Positions 4,619-46,028 are shown, counted from the first letter of the stretch. The stretch: DNA of 64,000 nt from Alphaproteobacteria bacterium (GCA_964291215.2 OZ219791.1:1600001-1664000); one strand, 5' to 3'. Numbers and translations are program-made. Notes: generated from the sequence alone by a model not told the origin.

Positions 4619-6976
4619 GGTTGTGGACTCGTAACTGCTCACCCCCTGGTTCCGGCTTGATGTCGGGGTAGAGCAACGAACGGGTTTTCGTGGAGATTTG
4701 ACACTGCATGCCGATTCGCTTAGTGGTGGTCATCGAGAACGACGGGGACCGCCAGTGGGCTACTTTGGATCGAAGGCGACGAGCGGGCTGTGCCAGTTGC
4801 TTCCGGGGCTCCAGCCTCCGCATGATCTGTATGTGGAAACGCATCTCGGAAGCGGCGCGCTGATGAAGCGCAAGGCCGGGTGATGGCGACGGTCAACGCG
4901 GCGCGCGAGGAGTTCGAAGCGGCCAAGACCGCGGCGCTGCCGGCAAGGTGGCGGAAGAGGCCGTGATCCGCGTCCTCGTCATCCTGCTCGACATCCTCAT
5001 CGTCGTCCTTCTGGAGAAGACCACGCACGAGCCGGAACTCCGGTCTGCCGCCGTCACAGACGGACAAGAGCGTGCCGGAAGCAACGGCAAGGGCCCGAAG
5101 CCGAACCGGCAGATGGGCGACAACCTGCGCAAGACCATCGTCGAGGAAACGGTCGCGGCCTGCGACGCCTGCGGCGCCGACGGCCCCGTCGATCGGGAGC
5201 GCCGCACGACATCGTGTTCGAGGTCGTCGAGCGCCGCGTCGACACCGAGGAATGCCCGAAGTGCAAGGGCCGGTTCCCCGACAACATCCCGTGCAGTACG
5301 GCATCGGCATCCAAGCCCTCGTCATCAACCTGCTGGTCGCCCAGATGCTGTCCCTGCGCCGTGCCGTCGCGTTCGTGCAGTCGATCTCCGGCATCAAGCT
5401 CTCCGAGGCAACCTGCCTCGGCTATGCTTTCACGATGCGTCATGGGAGGAGGCCGCCGTGGCGCACCTCCTGCAACGCCCGATGTCGACGATTTCGGATC
5501 AACAGCAAGTGGCTCCATGTCGTGGGACCCTGACGTGCAAGTTCCCGCACCGCAAGCGCGGCCGGGAGGCAAGAGATCGGCCCGTGCTACAAGGGCGTCC
5601 TGGGCCTCGTACATGGGCCAGTGTAGCCACCAGCGGCAGCCACCTGCTGCGCGAACTGACCTTTGTCGTCGAGGCTACCGCGCGACTGATGAAGAGCCTG
5701 TTCCGCGAGGTCTGCCACAAGGTCAACAAGAGCGCATCCAAAACCCTGAACGACGCCGGGCGCAAGCGCTACCGCACCATCAGGGCGCCAGGGAACTGCC
5801 CGATATCCCGACGAAAGGAAAACGTGGACGCAAGTCCGACGCGCACAACCTGCACGAACGTCTCGTGAAACACGAAAACCTGCGCTTCACAGACGACCCC
5901 GACGTCAGCTTCACCAACAATGCCGGAGAACAGAAAATCAGGATGGCAAAGGTCAAGGTGTCCGGATGCTTCCGCACCATGCTCGACGCAAAAGCATGGT
6001 GCCGGGGCTCAAGCTACCTCACCTCCATGGCCGCACTCGGCTACAATCATCACGTTGCCACCCAGATCGCCCTCGACGGAAAAGCCGCAGACATCATCAA
6101 CGAGCACCACGACCAATCAGAACCCAACTAGGGGTGAGTAGATACGTGGACTCAAATAATTGGTTTGCGATTCTGCGGAGCAAGAATCGGCTGGCAGCCA
6201 GTTGCACGGCGGAGAGGAAGTTCCTTGTCATAACGGGTGGCGACTCGTCGGAACTCCTTGATCTTGCCGAAAAACCGCTCGATCAGGTTGCGAATCCTGT
6301 AGATCTCGCGGTCGAGCGGCCGTGGCGATGTCCGGTTGGATTTCATGACCGCGGTTGCTCCTGCCGTCTCGATCAGATGGCGTCGGTGTCGTAGGCCTTG
6401 TCGCCGACCACCGTCTCGCTCGAGGTCGGCGAGAAGCGCCTCCGCCTGCGCGCAGTCGGCCGCTTGGCCCGGGGTCAGGAACACGGTCTTCACCCTCTCG
6501 TTCTCGCCAAGATGGACCTTCGTCGTTCGTCCGCCACGGCCCGATTTGCGAAGGCTCGTCGTCCCGGGACGCCTCAGCTTGTGAACGCGCACCGACAAGG
6601 AGTCGACCATGCGCAGGTGAACCGAGCCGGGCGGGCCATCGTCGCTCCCGTCACCATCGCTCGTAAGCCTTTGAAGCTTCTCCATGCCCAAGTGCCGTTC
6701 TTGCTCCACCGGTTGAAGCGGTTGAAGCAGACGGACCGTAGCGCAGGTCGCGCCACGGCGTACCGGTGCGAAGCACGAAGAATATCCCGTTCATGACCCT
6801 CCGGTCATGCACCCGCTCCGGGCCCTGGTGCTTGTCAGGAAGCACCGAGCGGAGAACTTTTCATTCCGCGTCGCTCATGTCGTGTCGGTCGCCGCTCATC
6901 CTTCACTCTCCTTGTGAATCGCTTTCGACAAGAATAAGGCAGATCATGCAAAATGTCAACATTTGGGTACACAACC
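4619..6976 (-). mobile_element. IS5-family (IS427-like) element, transposase pseudogene 6152-6899, with IS66 inserted in its end
   Basis: TIRs ggttgtggactc/ggttgtgtaccc; TA duplication restoring intron B ggcTAactgg; RRVMNGIFFVLRTG.PWRDL and IERFFGKIKEFRRVATRYDK motifs. Confidence 0.85.
4631..6145 (+). mobile_element. IS66-family element type 1: truncated adenine MTase (4755-4883) plus frameshifted TnpC (4883-6131)
   Basis: TIRs gtaactgctcacccc/gtatctactcacccc; 8-bp TSD gtggactc at 4623-4630 and 6146-6153; FTNNAGEQKIRMAK...SGCFR motif. Confidence 0.9.
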
Positions 6977-8202
6977 TAACTGGTGGAATGTTGCCGGGTG
7001 CAAGTCCCGGCAGGAAGAGAGGCTAACCACCACTTTCTCCGTGAACCATGCGTCGTGAGGCGAAGCGTTGGTGAGCGGCAGGCCGGGCTATTGAGCCACG
7101 AGATTCTGTGAAACCGGAGTGCCGAGGTCGTGGCCGAAGGCAACACCCTGTGTGCCGTATTGGTGAGGCAGACGGGGGCTCCGCGGGGTCTGAGAACCAT
7201 GGCCGAAGCAGGGACCTGGGAGGTCTTTCAATTGTCCCTCTGTCGTGGAGGGGCCGCAGAGGAAAGGAACTAATCCGTAAACCGATGATGAACGAGAAGT
7301 CAGATTCGGCCATAGTACCGTTGAAGGCGGCGAACAAGGGTTCTTCGGAGCCTGCGGAGTTGTTTGAGGGAAGGGCAATGCGGTTGGCCCGCGCCGCGCG
7401 CAGAAGCGGGGGTCACAGGCGGCTGAACGCAGGTAGCGAAGAGGAACCCGGAAGAGCGTCTTTACTCCACCACGTGACGGTCGACATTCTGCACGATGCG
7501 TTCCATTCCTTGAGGAAGGACGCGGCGGCGGGCGTGGACGGCGTTGTGTGGCAAGCGTACGCGGAGGGTTTGGAAGACCGTCTGGTTGACCTGCACGCCC
7601 GTGTGCACAGGGGTGCGTACCGGGCGCCTCCAGGGTCTACATACCCAAGGAGGATGGAGGGCAACGACCGCTTGCCTCGCTGGAGGACAAGATTCTTCAG
7701 CGGGCGGTGTGATTCTGGTGCCGCGAGACGGAGTTCCTCGGGTTCAGTTACGGCTTCCGGCCGGGGCGCACAACGCGCTCGATGCAGTCACGGTGGAACG
7801 GCGGAAGGTCAACTGGATCGTTGACGCCCCTTCGACAACCGCGACCACCTGGTCGCGATGCTCGAGAGACGGATCGGGGGGTCTGATCATCAAGTGACGC
7901 CGGCATCATGGAAGGGACCGACTGGCAAGGGGACACCGCAGGGGGGCGATTGTAACGCCCCAAACGCAAAAGGCAACTTCCGCTTTGAGCGCGAAATTGT
8001 GCATTGGCGCGACCGCCCTTTGATTGATTTGAGACGCAAACGGTAATATCGTTATGACAAATGGCGCGATCATCGCGATCCCAAAAGGTCGAGCGGCACC
8101 GCGTACACCTTGCTCGCCCAAGGCGTGACGGCAAGCGAAGCGGTGCCTGTCTCAGCGCTTCGGTTTGTCACGGCGTATCGCTACCTCCAGGAGGCGTGCG
8201 CC

Positions 8203-8361
8203 ATGAGCCAGCCGGTCGAGCCGGCCGAGGCGGTGATCCCGATCACCATCAAGATTCCAGGCACGGAGGCTTTGCGGGCGCATTCCAGGAGCAGCGGCGA
8301 TTCGATAGGGGAGATTGTCGCGCGGGCTTTGAGACGCTCGGACATGGGTCGTCATTGCTGA
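8203..8361 (+). CDS. Small putative ribbon-helix-helix-like protein of the recombinase element
   Basis: caggagg RBS; ITIKIP...LR...SIGEIVARAL pattern. Confidence 0.4.
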   Translation: MSQPVEPAEAVIPITIKIPGTEALRAHSRSSGDSIGEIVARALRRSDMGRHC

Positions 8362-8490
8362 ACGCCGCTCAAGCTCTCGGCCCGCCGTTCACCTTGACTT
8401 TGATCGTCTGCTCGCCGCCAAGCTCCAGAACGCCTACGCGATCCTGGTGCCCGGCCCACAAGATCCCAACCCACGACGTAGGAGACGATC

Positions 8491-9942
8491 ATGAAGATTG
8501 CAGCCCTGTGGGTCTCGGGCGAGCAGGGATAGCAACACGATCGCCAGCCAGGCCTTGGTTGCCTACACGCCATGGCTACTGCGTGGCGCCCGACATGGTC
8601 ATCGAGGATGACGGCTATACCGGCGCGGTTCTCGAACGCTGGAGCGTGTCAGGGACCTCGCCGCGGAGGGGCGCGCCGTCCTGGTCCATGCCCCGGATCG
8701 CTTGAGCCGCCGCCTATCAGGTTCTGATCATCGAGGAGCTGGCCCGGCGTTGAGACCGTGTTCCTGAACGCGCCGTCGATGGAAACCCCCGAAGACCATC
8801 TCCTCGTCTAGGGAATGATCGCGGAATACGAGCGCGCGCAGATTCTGGAGCGTTCCCGTCGCGGCAAGCGTCGTCGGGCGCGGCGAGGTCGCCGGCGCAC
8901 CCTATGGCTACCACAAGAAAACCCAGGACAGCGACGCTTTCTACGAAATCACCGAACCGCAGGCGTCCGTGATCTACCGCCATTACACCGAAGATCACGT
9001 CAGCATCGGCGCGATCGCTCGCACACTCAACAAGTGTCCCCACGTCTTCCGGGCGCTGGGAACGCTCGGTGGTGATCCTGCGGAGTACAAGGGAAGAGCG
9101 TGCAAGACCCGGGTTGCGCCGCAGCGTGCGGCCTCTGCGCCGCCGCGACAGCAACACTGCCGGTCACGAACGGCCGCGACTGGATCGAGATCCCGGTGCC
9201 AGCGATCGTCAGCGAAGAGACCTTCGCCCTCGCCGAAGAGCAACGCAACAAGGTCTTCTCCAGGCGTAGGACCAAAACGCCCAGCGTCTCGCAGGGGCGT
9301 GCGGCAAATGCGGCTACGTCGGCCCGAACCACTGCCCGCAAGATCTCCTACTACCGCTGCCTGGGTTCCGACGCCTGGCGCCATCTCAACGGCCCGCTGT
9401 GCAACAGCCGTCCCGTGCATCTGCTCGATGACATCGTATGGCTGGTCCGCTTGCTCGAAGATCCGGCGCTCGTGAAAGCAGAGATCGGACTGGAGGCAGC
9501 CCGTGTCTCCGATCCAAGCCAGCAGCGCGAGGCCGACCTTCGGCATCGGCTGGGTCCGCAAGGCCATCGACCGCTTCGTCACGGCCTATCAGGAGGAGTT
9601 GATCACCATCGACGAGTTGCGCAACAGAACGCCCGAGCTCCGCCGTCAGGAACAAGCGCTGCATCGCGAACTGCAATCCACCGTCGATCGCGCCAAGGAT
9701 CGAGAGACTTATCTTCGGCTCGCCGAGACTCTGACCGGCTTTCTGGCGCGGCTGCGTTCGTCAGCCGAAACTCTGGACATCGCCGAACGGCAGCGTATCG
9801 TCCCGCTCCTCGTGAAGGAGATACTTGTCACCGAGGACAAAATCACTATCCGCCATTCCATCTCGCCGGGCGCGGACCCGTCGAGACCCGACAACGGCGG
9901 ACCCGAAGGCGAGAGTTACCTTTTGCGTTCGGGGCGTCGTCA
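8491..9942 (+). pseudogene. Large serine recombinase (catalytic, recombinase, Zn-ribbon and coiled-coil domains), frameshifted
   Basis: ggag RBS then MKIAAL; EDDGYTG, PDRLSR, GMIAEYERAQILERSRRGK, IPVPAIVSEETF, YYRC and LLVKEILV motifs spread across frames. Confidence 0.85.
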
Positions 9943-10782
9943 GCCCCTGCCTGGCGAACGTTTACCTGCACTACGTGACTGGTTCCAGAACCATTGGCGC
10001 AAACGGATGACTGACACGATCATCGTGCGCTATGCGGATGATTTTGTGTGCGGCTTTCAGGATCAGGGCGATGCGAAGCGCTGGGACCTCGGGGAGAGGT
10101 TGGCTCACTTGAACTGCACCCGGACAATCATCGAGTTCGGTCGGTTTGCGAGAGCGAACCGCCGGAAGCGGGGGCAAGGCGTTCGACTTCCTCGGTATGA
10201 CGCACTATTGCGAGCAGACGAGGAAGGGCAAGTTCAGGGTCGGCCGCAAACTATCCCAGAAACGGGCACCCTGCGGCGGATCAAGGAGGCGCTGCGCAAG
10301 CGGTGGCACGACAATCGGCACAAGACGGCCAAGTGGCGAGTGATCAAAGGCTGCTACTACGCCGTTCCGGGAAGCAGCCTGCGGGAGTTCATATACCAAT
10401 GCAAACTGCTGCGTGCCCTTCGGCGACGCTCCCAAAAGGACCGCACCGATTGGAGGGTCTTGGACACCCTTATCGCTGCCCACTGAGCCAGCATCCGCCA
10501 CCCGTGGCCAAACCAGCGCCTTGTCGTCAGGACCTGAGGGAGGAGCCGGATGCGAACAGCGCACGTCCGGATCCGTGCGGGGGGACCGGGGTAACCCGGT
10601 TCCCTACCGCGATGGAGCACGCATCGGGTTTCCCGGGGTAGAGACGGCGGCAATTCGGGACGGTACAGCAGTGAAAGACCGGAAGGTGAGGAGGACAGAC
10701 AGGATGGTGTGAGCCTTGAATGTCAAGGACCGCGTCCATGACCGCGAACCGGGAAAGGACGCGGAGTCCTCCTGACTGGCGG

Positions 10783-10797
10783 GTGCGCCAGGCTAAC
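10783..10797 (+). ncRNA. 5' stub of another intron B copy inserted in intron A and cut off by IS1634
   Basis: gtgcgccaggctaac is identical to the intron B 5' end and begins exactly where intron A homology stops. Confidence 0.65.
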
Positions 10798-11447
10798 CCG
10801 AAGTTCCAGAAAATTCCGGCTGAAATGCACGTCAAATCATTGATGCAGCGTGGTTTATCGGATTTTTCGTGCGTCATATTGTACCCATGTAATACTGTGT
10901 TGGATGCTTGAGATCCATGAATCTGCCGCCTATATGCAGTAGCCATGTATATCGAATCCATCCCCAACCGCTCGTCCCCGCCCGCCATCCTGCTCCGCGA
11001 GTCCTGTCGCGAAGCCGGAACGGTCAAGAAGCGCACTCTCGCCAACCTTTCCAGGTGGTCGCCCGCTCTCATCGAGGGATTGCGCATTCTGCTCAAGGGA
11101 GGAACCGCAGGTCTCGACGACGCCTCGTCCGCTCTCTTCCCCATGGTCATGTGGCCGCAGTGCTGGGAACCCTGAAGAAACTGGACCGGCGGATCGACAT
11201 GAAGCCTTCTCCCGAGCGCGATCAGGTTCTCGCCATGATCGTGGCACGCATCCTTGAGCCCGCCTCGAAGCTGGCCAGGGGGCTGGCCGAGGCCACCGCG
11301 GTCAGCGCCTTGGGTGAGCTCCTCGATGCGGAGTTGGACGAGAATGCCCTCTACGGCGCCGGCTCCTGGAACGTCAGGAGAGGATTAAGCGATCCCTGGC
11401 GGCACCTCGAAGAAGGCTGTCTGGTGCTGTATGACCTGACTTCAGTG
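10798..11447 (+). mobile_element. IS1634-family element, 5' part, truncated by IS256
   Basis: End ccgaagttccaga; MYIESIPNRSSPPAILLRES and LVLYDLTS; homologous to 52816-54617. Confidence 0.85.
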
Positions 11448-11630
11448 GATTACGCAACCTGATGTCTGGAAATTGTCGTGAAGCTCTCAGTCATCGAGCT
11501 GTTCCCATTTGATCTTGGTTTCGGTTTCCCATTTGTAACTGCCCAGGTCTGCTTCCGGCGATCAGCCACGGGTTATGGACTGAATCTTCCGGTCTGCTGC
11601 CGCGGACGCGGAGGCGAGCGGCGGGGGATT

Positions 11631-13101: not shown

Positions 13102-13761
13102 TCACGGGACCTCGACGGCCATGATCGCGGCCAGCACCGCCAGGCGTTCGCCCGCCGGCATGGCCTCGTAGAGCCGGCCCCAGTTGGCCGCCTTGCGCTT
13201 GATGCGCTGGCGGTCGGTGAAGTTCCGGCCGGCGAAGCGCGCCCAGTGCACCCGGTCGGGCGCGAAGTTGAACCACACCACCTCGGTCCGCACCCGGGCC
13301 TGGGTCGTCACCTGCAGCGCCAGCCGGCGCCAGCCCGACAGCAGGTCGTCATAGAGCGCAGACGGGTGGCCCGAGACCATCACCTGGCAGGGCAGACCCT
13401 TGAGCAGCTCAAGCAGCGCGACGTGGTCGGCCTCCGCATACTCGAAGCGGTAGCGCTGCGACGAACGCCGGGTCGCGTGCAGATAGGGCGGATCGCTGTA
13501 GACCAGCTCCGGGCCCAGAAACGCAAACGACGCCAGAAAGGAGTGGGCGCAGCCATGCACCAACTCCACCGGGTAGTCGCAGCCAAAGGCCTCAAGCGCC
13601 CGCTCATCGAGGTCGATCCCGATCGAGCGCACGGCAGCAGGCTTGCGCTTCATCAGCGCACCGCCCCCCAGGTGACTCTCGATATAGACAGAGTGCGGCG
13701 GCATCAGCGCAATCAGCGCCTGGCTCAGACCCGTCGTCGCCTTCGATCCGAAATACCCCAC
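13102..13761 (-). CDS. Compact D12-class (Dam-like) N6-adenine DNA methyltransferase
   Basis: GAGGAG RBS plus GTG; YFGSK (motif X), YIESHLGGG (motif I), GIDLD and catalytic DPPY; uninterrupted 219 aa. Confidence 0.88.
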   Translation of the reverse strand: MGYFGSKATTGLSQALIALMPPHSVYIESHLGGGALMKRKPAAVRSIGIDLDERALEAFGCDYPVELVHGCAHSFLASFAFLGPELVYSDPPYLHATRRSSQRYRFEYAEADHVALLELLKGLPCQVMVSGHPSALYDDLLSGWRRLALQVTTQARVRTEVVWFNFAPDRVHWARFAGRNFTDRQRIKRKAANWGRLYEAMPAGERLAVLAAIMAVEVP

Positions 13762-14231
13762 CAGCCGCTCCTCCCATGCGAGAGGGCAACCCATAGGCGC
13801 GCGCGCCTATGCAGTCAAGGCCGAGAGCAGCGACACGGCGAACAAAATCAGCAAGCTCTCACACTTGGCAGGGTACCTGGGTAGTTACTCCCATTTTTCG
13901 TCGATGAGGACCGCGGTTAAGAGGCGCTCCAACGAGGCGAGGTTCGGAAAGACCCTGACTTTGGAGGTGCGCCGCTTGAGCTCTTGCTGGATCGGCCGCT
14001 CGATACCGTTCGAGGTTCGCATGCGCTTGCGGTGAGCATCGGGCAAGGTGAAGACAGCGAGCCCCGCATTCTTTTCCAGCCAGGAAGCTTGGATGCTTGT
14101 CGCGATAGCTGGCCACGAGGGCGCCCAGTTCAGCCTCGGCGGTTTGGAGTGAGGAGGCGTTCCAGACGGTTCCGAGCTGTTTTCCAATACGTTTCCTGAT
14201 GTCGTTGTTCGGTGCACGGCGTTTTGCGCTA

Positions 14232-41123: not shown

Positions 41124-41309
41124 GATGGCGCGGTCGCGGGAGGCGGTGATGGAGGGTCCGGTGGCGCCGGGCGGGTACGACCCGGCAGGCTGCGGCATGG
41201 CCGTCGTCTGCTTCATCGTCGTCATCCTTCGAGCCAGGGGTTTCGGACGGGCGGAGAGTCTGCGGAGCGGGAGATTGCAGCCTTGGGCACTGTCAAGCTG
41301 AACCGGCGG

Positions 41310-43546
41310 GTGCGCCAGGCTAACTGGCAGAATGTCGCCGGGTGAAAGTCCCGGCAGGAAGAGAGGCTAACCACCACTTTCTCCGTGAACCATGCGTCGT
41401 GAGGCGTCAGGCAAAGCGTTGGGGAGCGGCAGGCGTGCAGCGAGTCTAGCTGCTGATCTTGCGGGTGAAAGTCCCGCAATTCTCAGTTTGGCGCCGTAGC
41501 ATTGGTTCAGGGGCGACCCTGGATCAGCGAGCTGGGACGTAGAAAGCCGTCGTGGGCTGGCTGGAACGCAGTGTCCAGCCGATCCGGTCAGCCAGGGCGG
41601 CGAGCAAACCGGAGGGCGAAAGCGAACGGGAAGCCCCGAAATTCCCCACCCACACGAAGCTGATTTGTGGGATAGGCGGCGAACGCCAAGGTTGCTACCC
41701 GATGGCCAGTGTCGATGCGGAAGAACTGAGGAACACGCATCGGGTTCCCCGGGGTACAGACGGCGGCAATTCGGGACAGATCAGCAGTGAAAGACCGGAA
41801 GGTGAGGAGGACAGACAGGATGAAGAGACCCGTCAAGGACCGCGTCTATAACCGGGAGACGGGAAAGGACGCGGAGTCCTCCTGACTGGCGGATGAGGTC
41901 GCCTAAGGGGCGGGACAACACAACCCGTCCCGAGCGAGGACCTCAGGGCTCAGGTAGCCTATGCGGCAGGTCAAGCCGGTACGCAGACCGACAGACTGCA
42001 AGGCCGAAGGACGGAGCAAACGCTCGGAGATGCCGTGGGTATGGTTGGGTCAGCCTTGACTATGGCGTGGGAAGGCTTCGCACCGAACTCCAAGTGGGTG
42101 CCTGATGCTTGAACCGGGAAAACCGGACGTACGGAATTTTAGGGGGGCTGCTGGAAACGTGGTCTATGGCGATTCTGCGAACCCGCCCGCAATCGAAAGA
42201 GCGGTGACGGATAAAGCCTTCGCCTAAGGATGCGCGCGCCAGCGGCCTACCCGACGTGGGCCGGGCTATCGAGCTACGAGATTCAGGTCAAACCGGAGTG
42301 CCGAGGTCGTCCGCCAAGCCGAAGGCAACACCCTGCGAGCCGCGTTGGTGAGGCGAGCAGGTGCTCCGCGGGGTCCGAGAACCATGGCCGAAGCAGGGAC
42401 CCGGGAGGTCTTGCCCCACTGTCGTAGAGGGGTCGCAGAGGAAAGGAACTATTCCGTAACCCGATGATGAACGAGAAGTCGGATTCGGCCATGGTACCGT
42501 CGAAGGCGGCGAACAAGGGCTCTTCGGAGCCTGCGGAGTTGCTGGAGGGAAGGGCAATGCGGTTGACCCGCGCCGCACGCAGAAGCGGGGGTCACAGGCG
42601 GCGCATACGACAAGCTGCGAAGAGGAATCCGGAAGAGCGTCTTGTGACGTTGCTCCACCACGTGACGTTCTGCACGCTGCGTTTCACTCCTTGAGAAAGG
42701 ACGCGGCAGCGGGGGTGGACGAAGTTACGTGGCACGCGTACGCGGAAGGTGTGGAACTGCCTGCACGCCCGTGTGCACAGGGGCGGGCGCCCTTGTCGCG
42801 GCGGGTATACATACCCAAGGAGGGCAACGACCGCTTGCCTCGCTGGAGGACAAGATTCTGCAGCGGGCGGTGACGGACACGATTCTGGTACCGCGAGACG
42901 GAGTTCCTCGGGTTACGGTTTCCGGCCGGGGCGCACGATGCGCTCGATGCAGTCGGAGTGGAACGGCGGAAGGTCGACTGGATCGTTGACGCCCCTTCGA
43001 CAACCGCGACCACCTAGTCGCGATGCTCGAGAGACGGATCGGGGGCTCTGATCATCAAGTGACGCTGGCGTCATGGAGCGACACCGGTGTTGGTTCGCCG
43101 CAGGGCGCAGCCCCTGCCTGGCGAACGTTTACCTGGACTACGTGCGACTGGTTTCAGAACCATTGGCGCAAACGGATGACTGACACGATCATCGTGCGCT
43201 ATGCGGACGACCTTGTGTGCGGCTTTCAGTATCAGGGCGATGCGAAGCGCTGGGACCTCGGGGAGAGGTTGGCTCACTTGAACTGCACCCGGACAATCAT
43301 CGAGTTCGGTCGGTTTGCCGGAGCGAGCCGCCGGAAGCGGGGGCAAGACGTTCGACTTCCTCGGCATGACGCACTATTGCGAGCAAACGAGGAAGGGCAA
43401 GTTCAGGGTCGGCCGCAAACCATCCCGGAAACGGGCACCCTGCGGCGGATCAAGGAGGCATTGCGCAAGCTGTGGCACGACAACCGGCACAAGACGGCCA
43501 AGTGGCGAGTGATCAAGGGATGGCTCAACTACTACGCCGTTCCGGG
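41310..43546 (+). mobile_element. Group II intron B, copy 2 (degraded RT, 3' truncated), interrupted by intron A
   Basis: GTGCG start; homologous to 4606-10613; RYADDL, FDFLG and GWLNYY remnants. Confidence 0.88.
41435..42255 (+). ncRNA. Group II intron A, ORF-less, 821 nt
   Basis: Starts gtgcag; gggtgaaagtccc element; DV remnant ccgggaaaaccggacgtacggaatt; long DVI ending cctacccgac; intron B resumes on both sides. Confidence 0.8.
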
Positions 43547-43619
43547 AATACGGAGAGCGGTGTCCGTATGATGCTCCGAAGGGCCGGGTTTCGTTTTGTC
43601 TCGGGACGGCCGGTCCACC

Positions 43620-46028
43620 CTAGCGCTACCATGTCCTGAAAAAGAGGGCTGGACATTGCCGATCGGGCGGTGTACGGTCCCTCGCCATGCGGACCCAATC
43701 GAACATTCTTCGGACGCTGCGCGGCGCGGAAGCGCGGTCCCGGGTGGCCGGGATCCTGTCGCGGGAGTCGTTTGCCAGCCGGCAGTCTCTGGGCCGCCGG
43801 GTGTGCGAGGAGTTTGCCTTTGTCGACGCCCTCGGCCGGTGGCAGGTTTCGGGATGCCTCAAGGCCCTGCGCACCCTGGCGGCGTCCTCGCCGGAGATCG
43901 TCCTGCCGCCGCCCCGGGTGCCGCCGCCGGACCGAACGCCGCGTCAGCTGGATGAGGCCGTTCCGGCGCCCGTCGGGGTGCCGGGGCGGGTGTCGGAGAT
44001 CGAAGGGCTGGAGGTGTTTCCGGTGACGACGGTGGTGCAGCGCACGGTGTGGAACACGCTGATCGCGCGCGAGCATCCGCACGGCCTGACGACCTTCGCG
44101 GGCCATCAGGTGCGCTATTTGGTGACCTCGGGACACGGAATCCTGGGCGCGGCCGGGTTCTCGGCCGCCGCCTTGCAGGTGCAGGCCCGGGACCGCTGGA
44201 TCGGGTGGAGTGCGCCGCAGCGCCGGGATCACCTCCACCGGGTGATCGGTCTCAGCCGCTTCCTGATCCGTCCGGCGGTCCGCTGTCCCCACCTCGCCAG
44301 CCAAGTGCTGGGCCGTCTGTTGCGACGGCTGCCCGCGGATTTCGAGGCCCGCTACGGCCTGCGGGTGTGGCTGGTGGAAAGCTATGCGGATGCGGGCGTG
44401 CCGGGCACCTGCCTGCGGGCTGCCAATTTCGTGTGCGTGGGCGAGACGAAGGGGCGGGGCCGCCAGGACCGGTATCATCGCCGGGAGAAGACCGGGAAGA
44501 CGGTCTGGATGTACCCGTTGCACCGGCGTTGGCGCCGGGATCTCGGGGTGGCCGAAGTGGAGCGATGGCCGTCGCTCGAGCCCGGCGAAGGTCTCGGTGC
44601 ACGGGAGTGGGCCGCGAACGAGCTGGGAGGAGCACCCTTGGGGGATCGGCGACGGGCGGCGCGACTGGTGAAGAGCGCTTCGCTGCTGGCGGAGTATCCG
44701 GGGCAGAAGATCCAGGCCCACCCGGACAGCAGCCGTACGGTCATCAGTGCCTTCTACCGGTTGATCGAGCAACCGGTGGACAGCGCCATCACGGTGGACA
44801 ACATCCTGGCGCCTCACCGGGAGCGTACCCTCCAGCGCATCCGGGGGCAGCGGACGGTGCTGGCGATCGAGGACGGGAGCGATCTGAACTTTGCGCGGCG
44901 TCCGGGGTGTGACGGTCTGCAGGTCATCGGCACGAACCAGACCCGTGCCTCGACCCTGCACGCCACGCTGGCGGTGACCGACACCGGCCTGCCCCTGGGG
45001 GTGCTGCGGTTGGGGTTCGACCCGAAGCATGCGAAGACCGTCGCCGCCGGGACGAAAAGCCGGCGATGGCTCCACGGATTCACGGATACCGTCGACGCCG
45101 TCCGGGAAGTCGGCGGCAAGACCCGCGTGATCATGGTCTGCGATCGGGAGGCGGATTTCTTCGAACTGTTCGATCTCCAGCGCCAGCACCCGCGGGTCGA
45201 GGTGCTGGTACGGGCCCGGCACGATCGGGTCCTGGGGCCCCACCGCCCGAAGCTGTTCGCTGCCATGCAAGCCGGCCCGTCCGACGATCAGATCGAGATC
45301 GAGATCGACGGCCTGACCGAACGCCGGAAATCGCGCGGGAAACCGGCCCGGCGCAAGCGTGTGGCCAACTGCGAACTCCGACATCGTCGCCTGACCCTGC
45401 CGTCGACCCTGGAGGGCAAGGATCCGGTGTCCGTCTCGACGGTCCATCTGGTCGAAACCCACCCGCCCGAGGGCGAGAATCCGGTGCAGTGGTTCCTGCT
45501 CACCACGCTCCCGGTGCGCACCGGGCCGCAAGCCGCCGAGGTGGTCGGCCACTATCTCCAGCGCTGGAAGATCGAGGATTTCTTCCGCGTCCTGAAATCC
45601 GGCTGCCAGGTGCAGTCCCTGCTGTTCCGCAAGGCCGAACGCCTACAACGGGTCACCGCCATCCATGCCGTGATCGCCTGGCGCATCATGGTCCTGACCC
45701 TGCTCGGACGACAGGTCCCGGACTGTGAACCCGCGCTGATGTTCACCGATCCGGAACTGGCCTTCCTCCGCGACTACGCGCGCGAGCAGGCCATGCCGGC
45801 TCCCGACACCCTCGGCGGCGCCGTGCGTCTGGTCGCCCATCTCGGAGGGTATCGGGACCGCAAGCACGACCCTGAACCCGGATACCAGATCATGTGGCAC
45901 GGCTCCAACCGGCTGAGCGGCGCCACCCTCGGTCATCGAATCGGCTTCCAGGCCGGCCAGCGGCAGGCCCTGGTCCGGGATCGGGCTCCCCTGGTTCAGC
46001 CATAATTGTCATGCCTCGGTAGGGCTAG
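43620..46028 (+). mobile_element. IS4-family element
   Basis: Imperfect TIRs ctagcgctacc...tga / ctagccctacc...tga enclosing one long ORF. Confidence 0.75.
43687..46005 (+). CDS. DUF4338 (DruA-like)-IS4/Tn5-type transposase fusion
   Basis: N-half: WN.LI..EH, RDRWIGW, RFLIRP, GTCLRAANF..VGETKGRGRQD; C-half: LGDRR, AFYR, EDGSDLNF, CDREAD, Y..RW.IE.FFRVLKSGC. Confidence 0.85.
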   Translation: MRTQSNILRTLRGAEARSRVAGILSRESFASRQSLGRRVCEEFAFVDALGRWQVSGCLKALRTLAASSPEIVLPPPRVPPPDRTPRQLDEAVPAPVGVPGRVSEIEGLEVFPVTTVVQRTVWNTLIAREHPHGLTTFAGHQVRYLVTSGHGILGAAGFSAAALQVQARDRWIGWSAPQRRDHLHRVIGLSRFLIRPAVRCPHLASQVLGRLLRRLPADFEARYGLRVWLVESYADAGVPGTCLRAANFVCVGETKGRGRQDRYHRREKTGKTVWMYPLHRRWRRDLGVAEVERWPSLEPGEGLGAREWAANELGGAPLGDRRRAARLVKSASLLAEYPGQKIQAHPDSSRTVISAFYRLIEQPVDSAITVDNILAPHRERTLQRIRGQRTVLAIEDGSDLNFARRPGCDGLQVIGTNQTRASTLHATLAVTDTGLPLGVLRLGFDPKHAKTVAAGTKSRRWLHGFTDTVDAVREVGGKTRVIMVCDREADFFELFDLQRQHPRVEVLVRARHDRVLGPHRPKLFAAMQAGPSDDQIEIEIDGLTERRKSRGKPARRKRVANCELRHRRLTLPSTLEGKDPVSVSTVHLVETHPPEGENPVQWFLLTTLPVRTGPQAAEVVGHYLQRWKIEDFFRVLKSGCQVQSLLFRKAERLQRVTAIHAVIAWRIMVLTLLGRQVPDCEPALMFTDPELAFLRDYAREQAMPAPDTLGGAVRLVAHLGGYRDRKHDPEPGYQIMWHGSNRLSGATLGHRIGFQAGQRQALVRDRAPLVQP

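Follow-up and report, generated by a model that had tools for sequence, protein, structure and literature searches.

Phage-type serine integrases recombine sites that share a matching central dinucleotide, in a fixed orientation, and their attP and attB sites show a 5-bp offset of the distal motif. Elements of the TndX/TnpX type move through a circle intermediate, and IS607 is moved by a small serine transposase that has an N-terminal HTH and is often accompanied by TnpB. The integrases of Mx8 and SSV1 carry the attP site within int. The accessible text of Coluzzi 2017 (PMC5357655) describes streptococcal IMEs whose serine integrases disrupt the traG, maff2 and snf2 genes of Tn5252-family ICEs, and that of PMC10083194 gives the DUF4368 domain for 63% of the multi-targeting TndX/TnpX clade.

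The locus described here lies in the window, by which we mean the whole stretch of 64,000 nt of alphaproteobacterial DNA that was analysed; the genome from which it comes (G000) has 6.15 Mb in two contigs. As the sequence-only reading of the window had proposed, an insert of about 2 kb splits the RT of a group II intron: with the host RT of a related locus (L008) as query, tblastn matched 7456-7775 and 10022-10525, and the Rfam model group-II-D1D4-6 (RF02005) matched 7001-7198. The insert is a dead copy of an IS-sized element of about 2.24 kb, whose relatives occupy the codon between PQGxx and SP of intron RTs and which quite probably leaves as a circle and re-inserts by means of its own recombinase. 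Such movement would make the element a parasite of another genetic parasite. The features of the locus are listed below.

6152..6976, minus strand: IS5-family remnant (DUF4096 and DDE_Tnp_1), context outside the element, abutting and truncating the intron 5' end
6977..7951, plus strand: 5' half of the host group II intron, alpha subfamily beside the element (Rfam, tblastn, comparison of copies)
7952..7953, plus strand: left crossover core GT, bases 1-2 of the host Val codon
7954..9938, plus strand: the element, between two GT crossover cores, with the RT split at the V codon between PQGAI and SP
7954..7978, plus strand: left att arm, inverted repeat of the right arm
7954..8046, plus strand: tail segment of 30 codons and a stop, completing the recombinase only across joined ends; intact in the window copy
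8061..8361, plus strand: ORF1, HTH and ribbon-helix-helix (RHH), 109 aa in the intact relative L086, frameshifted in the window
8354..8494, plus strand: ORF2, small conserved protein, overlapping ORF1 and the recombinase start
8491..9938, plus strand: large serine recombinase pseudogene, final frame open through the element end
9914..9938, plus strand: right att arm, within the recombinase coding sequence
9939..9940, plus strand: right crossover core GT, from comparison with intact empty sites
9941..10613, plus strand: 3' half of the host intron, beta subfamily beside the element (tblastn, comparison of copies)
43095..43125, plus strand: second intron copy (beta), target site without its core, 7-nt deletion

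The ends of the element are set by the sequences of intact empty sites in the same genome, which read ATT-GT-ATCG (alpha) or ATT-GT-CAGC (beta). The insert first drawn at 7951..9942 is genuine, but its exact ends had to be corrected to 7954-9938, and of the residues GVV that the right end was thought to supply, the last V is the host's own codon, as the empty sites show. The terminal inverted arms are the longest highly complementary pair within 6900-10700 and are symmetric about the core. Their identity is 22/24 from the second base out of the core, the count originally given for an attP-like pair, and 21/24 from the first base. The absence of a TSD also stands in the relevant sense: the 2-bp repeat is the crossover core, and the two ends differ in 20/43 distinct simple insertions. 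A pair gcagggg...cccctgc, described as a palindromic attB, is present but is not centred on the core, because the window copy joins the left half of an alpha intron to the right half of a beta intron; in the family, symmetry about the core is confined to GG/CC at positions 5-6, and we rejected the palindrome as a family feature. The second intron copy, taken at 43095-43120 for an empty site, does not serve as one, its core having been removed by the 7-nt deletion.

Both halves of the host RT in the window are decayed. The N-terminal half runs from an ATG at 7378 to PQGAI; the C-terminal half retains YADD and ends with a stop at 10535-10537, and the intron extends to 10613. At its 5' end the intron lacks the initial ~10 nt, displaced by the IS5-like element, and the G run ahead of the left core has one additional G when copies are compared. 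A promoter scan returned a single weak site, on the minus strand.

A genome scan yielded 561 relatives among 601 candidates; the 79 loci taken come from the best 80 of the 561 matches, so that distant members are under-sampled. Record titles among the matches listed name Alpha- and Gammaproteobacteria, Acidobacteriota, Gemmatimonadota, Spirochaetia and others. Five plasmid regions, from Rhizobium, Bradyrhizobium, Mesorhizobium, Rhodococcus and Streptomyces, have RT fragments on either side of a small gene and the recombinase. Paired arms with at least 20/25 identity were present at 66 of 84 loci among the matches listed; the other 18 were dropped, 13 having no arm pair (mostly at contig ends) and 5 a weak one. 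These 66 elements have 132 junctions, six of them too short for scoring, and 118 of the 126 scoreable junctions lie at PQGxx or SPxL (among the matches listed). By eye, five of the eight leftover junctions are RT-like variants and three are not (L007 on one side, L056 on both). Group II intron RNA was recognized at 15/17 and 12/17 of the loci scanned (27/34), with six D1-D4 models matched; the remaining 7/34 scanned loci had no Rfam intron match. With the element taken out, a long RT frame that includes YADD is open again in 27 of 48 simple insertions among the matches listed, and the 21 host frames that stay closed do so at contig ends or through other lesions. The host RTs (n=32) have a median identity of 36%, and two loci (L057 and L059) carry 100% identical elements in RTs only 33% alike. 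The proposal of a hyperparasite specialised on group II intron RT genes is borne out by these junction and intron RNA counts. It had come with the suggestion to examine the flanks of homologous recombinases for RT sequence, which is what the 118/126 junctions represent; insertion at random sites or with true TSDs was looked for among the relatives and did not occur.

Simple insertions face both ways (27 forward vs 21 reverse among the matches listed), and there are rearranged elements, four with two N-sides and two with two C-sides. In at least three cases (L007, L056 and L113) the element is bordered on one side or both by sequence other than an RT. Scored with a matrix of 44 RT sites, these off-target sites rank in the top 0.1-1.7% of background, far below true sites, which fits relaxed recognition of DNA and nothing RT-specific. 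The insertion at L113:1641-3894 interrupts a DUF4158 gene on a Streptomyces plasmid, and the DNA of the site is partly RT-motif-like. At L099:675-3119 two different members, 80% alike, are integrated head-to-tail; one element's end can therefore serve as target for another. Two further loci, L030 and L037, are on the same complete chromosome, in opposite orientation, with seven element copies in all. Their flanks are reciprocal halves of the same nested introns, that is, reciprocal chimeras, which points to an inversion of ~0.74 Mb, as expected from recombination between element copies. Azospirillum matches (33% identity) were set aside as something else, the one inspected lying opposite an unrelated ORF amid glycosyltransferase genes.

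Among 43 distinct simple insertions, 23 have the same core at both ends (0.36 expected by chance), 18 have cores one base apart and 2 have cores two bases apart (0.20 expected). In seven insertions a foreign core (AC, AG, AA or GA) is present, which is the reverse complement of a plausible host core (GT, CT, TT or TC). From these patterns we infer that the circle would carry the core from its last host and that the exchange would tolerate a one-base mismatch. A transposase that duplicates its target would leave identical flanks every time. The arms contain GTTACC at -24..-19, which is similar to GTTGGC at -19..-14 of the target, on the SP side only; RT codon conservation confounds this resemblance.

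By its domains the element's recombinase is a large serine recombinase. The enzymes of two intact relatives, L086 and L051, contain Resolvase, Recombinase and Zn-ribbon domains, all above the Pfam cut-off, and the best fold matches of the recombinase model are the serine integrases of SPbeta, phiC31 and Bxb1. The pseudogene of the window is 89% identical to L086 over aligned columns; in Pfam, its nine fragments gave weak Resolvase matches only. L086 is an intact member from the same genus and encodes a 109-aa HTH-RHH protein, an ORF2 of ~70 aa and the recombinase. ORF1 is likely to be a regulator, its counterparts in the plasmid relatives being annotated as CopG-family RHH proteins and its own match to RHH_1 (E 0.013) lying under the Pfam cut-off. 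ORF2, which in the window has lost its start codon and is frameshifted, had no Pfam or NCBIfam assignment, and its Atlas matches were 0.82 or lower; position and conservation alone make it a candidate directionality factor. Where two to three tiny cargo ORFs were first noticed, one of them RHH-like, the number is two. The elements have three genes and a median length of 2,240 bp, with relaxase, phage or island genes absent.

In 59/66 elements the recombinase frame continues through the right arm without a stop; five have an inner stop, and for two no start was found. The observation that the recombinase has no stop inside the element holds for the final frame in the window but not throughout the pseudogene, which has an in-frame TAG at 8809. 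The stop codon is absent because attP lies inside the recombinase gene. The integrated recombinase gains 0-203 arbitrary residues from the host, and joining of the element ends adds a tail of 31 residues in 38 of the 59 recombinases. Beyond the arm the tail evolves as protein: over 33 distinct ends, the synonymous share is 0.59 in the tail frame vs 0.19 and 0.10 in the other forward frames, and the 0.57 of the mirror reverse frame is as expected for two frames that have their wobble positions in common. Stops interrupt the three frames in 8, 41 and 51 of 53 ends. Joined ends were present in three metagenome contigs, and none was found in viral contigs. The joined form of L099, two elements in tandem, encodes a tail-bearing enzyme of 609 aa, and each of the joined contigs L097 and L098 represents a circle, tandem copies or an assembly loop. 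A natural tail was found in 4 of 120 proteins, one being the query, and in the structure model the tail has a pLDDT under 50 and is unplaced.

Compared with the systems introduced above, the element has the three-domain layout of phage-type integrases (SPbeta, phiC31, Bxb1, A118), its best sequence and fold matches, and likewise inverted arms with a 2-bp core. Unlike them, it is devoid of phage genes, inserts in either orientation, apparently tolerates core mismatch at a degenerate target and has its attP inside the integrase gene; the phage-type features of fixed orientation and matching core are absent (27 vs 21 orientations, 20/43 cores mismatched). The multi-targeting recombinases TndX and TnpX (Tn5397, Tn4451) resemble it in acting as transposases, according to the accessible part of PMC10083194, whereas the element lacks resistance or mobilisation cargo and has one protein motif as its target; DUF4368 had no match in the two intact recombinases at E up to 1. 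IS607 is likewise an IS-sized element moved by a serine recombinase, but the element's enzyme is a large three-domain protein without TnpB that scores 45.4 bits against the NCBIfam IS607 cut-off of 110. In phages with integration-dependent immunity of the BPs type, attP lies in a gene and integration swaps the C-terminus, as given in the accessible part of PMC9262239; BPs, Mx8 and SSV1 use tyrosine integrases and tRNA targets, whereas here a serine recombinase has its tail swapped, with a putative role. The nearest concept is that of the streptococcal IMEs, in which a serine integrase element hits a conserved gene of another mobile element, according to the available text of PMC5357655, whereas our element is relaxase-free, 2.2 kb long, and targets a retroelement RT across phyla. 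We found no description of this element family in the literature searched, a partial coverage with few subscription papers and with ISfinder outside it. In Durrant 2022 (PMC10083194, with its preprint), the parts of the main text and supplement that were searched mention no RT or intron target, although its target-gene data could contain one. Two further papers, PMC6053426 and PMC8496243, were unrelated in their accessible parts.

What the sequences show directly is the target codon, 25-bp inverted arms with a 2-bp core between them, insertion in either direction, frequent mismatch of the cores, three genes and a conserved tail of ~31 residues that completes the recombinase frame across joined ends only. 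In the cycle that we propose, the integrated, tail-less recombinase, probably together with ORF2, would excise a circle whose core may be heteroduplex. The circle would encode the full-length recombinase, which would integrate, in either orientation, wherever the DNA resembles the conserved RT motif. Such a target would offer the advantage of being dispensable, multicopy and widespread. Recombination between copies would reshuffle intron halves and produce alpha/beta chimeras like that of the window. If true, group II introns would be subject to a widespread brake, one usually annotated as two RT fragments and a 'recombinase family protein', whose copies also reshuffle intron halves. The recombinases apparently tolerate core mismatch, both orientations and a degenerate coding motif, which bears on the choice of target and direction by genome-engineering enzymes, and the att site within the recombinase gene would make for a testable directionality switch.

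Two other readings of the whole family deserve consideration. The size, the inverted ends and the 2-bp repeat at both ends in the window would suit a TSD-forming transposon, its arms being ordinary terminal inverted repeats. We consider this highly improbable, as the 2-bp flanks differ in 20/43 insertions, foreign cores among them, joining of the ends completes the gene, and in the intact relatives Pfam found no DDE domain, the sole large gene being a serine recombinase. Hardly more probable is an off-switch for the intron RT under host control, in which excision would restore the maturase when required. The sequence-only reading had raised a reversible switch of the maturase, and the idea can draw on the precise removal that reopens the RT frame in 27/48 relatives and on a minimal cargo that includes a regulator-like gene. 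Against it, both orientations occur (27 vs 21), mismatched cores would change the host codon after some excisions, within a single genome copies have spread over RTs unrelated to each other, RTs only 33% alike harbour identical elements, off-target and tandem insertions exist, and in the window both recombinase and RT are destroyed. Movement by the element's own recombinase is the reading that we retain. An extended form of it, a hyperparasite of retroelements with two routes, in which the tail swap flips insertion and excision, mismatched cores are tolerated and an element lodged in domain IV, even a dead one, is copied with the intron RNA by a trans-acting RT, is in our view rather unlikely.

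The copy in the window allows the fate of a dead element to be considered. G000 contains about 60-70 copies of the host intron (70 matches 3' of the site, 56 near-full-length and empty), and three of 59 intron copies carry the element: that of the window (W), and A and B on contig C1. No intact recombinase of the family was found in G000. W differs from L086 by 38 deletions, 0 insertions and 179 substitutions; compared with L051, W, A and B have 31 deletions in common, and substitutions between the elements number 19 for W-A and 3 for A-B. The element therefore died first in this genome and spread to three introns passively afterwards. W itself is a dead copy with recombinase and RT both destroyed, whose excision could not restore the RT, and the idea of a reversible switch at this locus fails on a pseudogene with 38 deletions relative to L086. 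Loss of the core from empty introns was considered as a possible evolved resistance: overlapping deletions reach their maximum of three at the core (1% of columns), where 63% of 59 copies are gapped, but 19% of columns are gapped equally and other spots are also hit repeatedly.

How the three introns came to hold a dead element may be explained at the level of RNA or of DNA. The laden intron could have been copied as RNA by an RT acting in trans, with the dead element riding along. The 31 deletions shared by the three copies, the lack of an intact recombinase in G000 and the one nearly open RT frame of this genome, near C2:3404058, are consistent with this. So are the outer intron parts of W and A, mutual nearest neighbours on both sides with 3 differences in 719 nt vs at least 30 for the other 57 copies; both end at the precise intron 3' end, and the sequence beyond differs. 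Introns are described as carrying domain IV cargo with the RT expressed separately in the accessible part of PMC3898094, where, on the other side, cargo of more than 1,000 nt cuts mobility sharply. Also against riding, the element of A is nearer to that of B (3 substitutions) than to that of W (19), A also matches B in the sequence close to the element, and the intron copies of G000 are mosaic, so conversion occurs. A pair of loci in a Pseudomonadales MAG, L029 and L031, was considered as proof of riding and discarded, since the copies of their intron X differ by 0-1 base and cannot separate riding from conversion. Riding is, on balance, a tentative explanation. Spread at the DNA level, by gene conversion among the ~60 introns or by a former recombinase acting in trans, seems somewhat the better supported: besides the mosaic introns, the arms are intact in all three laden copies, 21 intact-looking empty sites remain in G000, and a far less deleted sister form exists in sequencing run X3. 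It would, however, demand that each of two sister introns acquired an element present in only 3/59 copies. Riding on intron RNA is no more likely than conversion or an enzyme formerly supplied in trans. The special value of the window copy lies in this passive spread after death and in an unexplained process that makes 5-7-nt deletions in repeats.

Repeats make up 1.97 Mb of G000 in 851 regions, about 32% of the genome. Among pairs of long and short sequences in these repeats, the length difference is 5-7 nt in 1,852 of 3,163 distinct pairs, and a second peak falls at 11-13. In comparison with genome G001, 16.4 kb of single-copy genes had 914 substitutions and no 5-7-nt gap. Repeats rich in such deletions lie in the window, for example at 6977-10613, 10945-11460 and 42200-43550, where the deletions also come in multiples. 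An assembly artefact was considered and rejected because the deleted form recurs in contigs from runs X1 and X2, in X1 over 513 nt without a gap, although X1 may be the source sample. The sister form from run X3 differs over 8144-9552 by 11 letters but 213 gap letters, which suggests that deletions outpace substitutions. Microhomology of at least 2 nt is enriched at deletion sites (about 50% vs 20%), whereas no strong motif or hairpin was found there, and neither Piwi nor Ku had a match in G000. Part of the contrast between repeats and genes could come from purifying selection on the latter, and a repeat-directed process of defence or repair is possibly behind the deletions.

Several minor observations concern the surroundings of the element. 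Many host intron copies of G000 are nested in each other and in IS66-like elements. In the window, the second intron copy is interrupted at 41306-42236 by another group II intron-like fragment and truncated at 43687-46005 by a 772-aa ORF, a fusion of DruA (DUF4338-type) with an IS4/Tn5-like transposase. A 14-nt intron 5' start lies ahead of an IS at about 10783-10797, and the TA of the intron 5' end seems to have been struck by IS elements repeatedly. An ORF at 13102-13794, without a Pfam match at E 0.01, and a fragment at 4698-4883 look by eye like a DNA adenine methyltransferase and stand beside IS66-like elements. Finally, G000 encodes distant large serine recombinases of 25-28% identity at C1:1777857-1779227, C2:43685-44656 and C2:2415579-2416550, the aligned parts of which are free of frameshifts.
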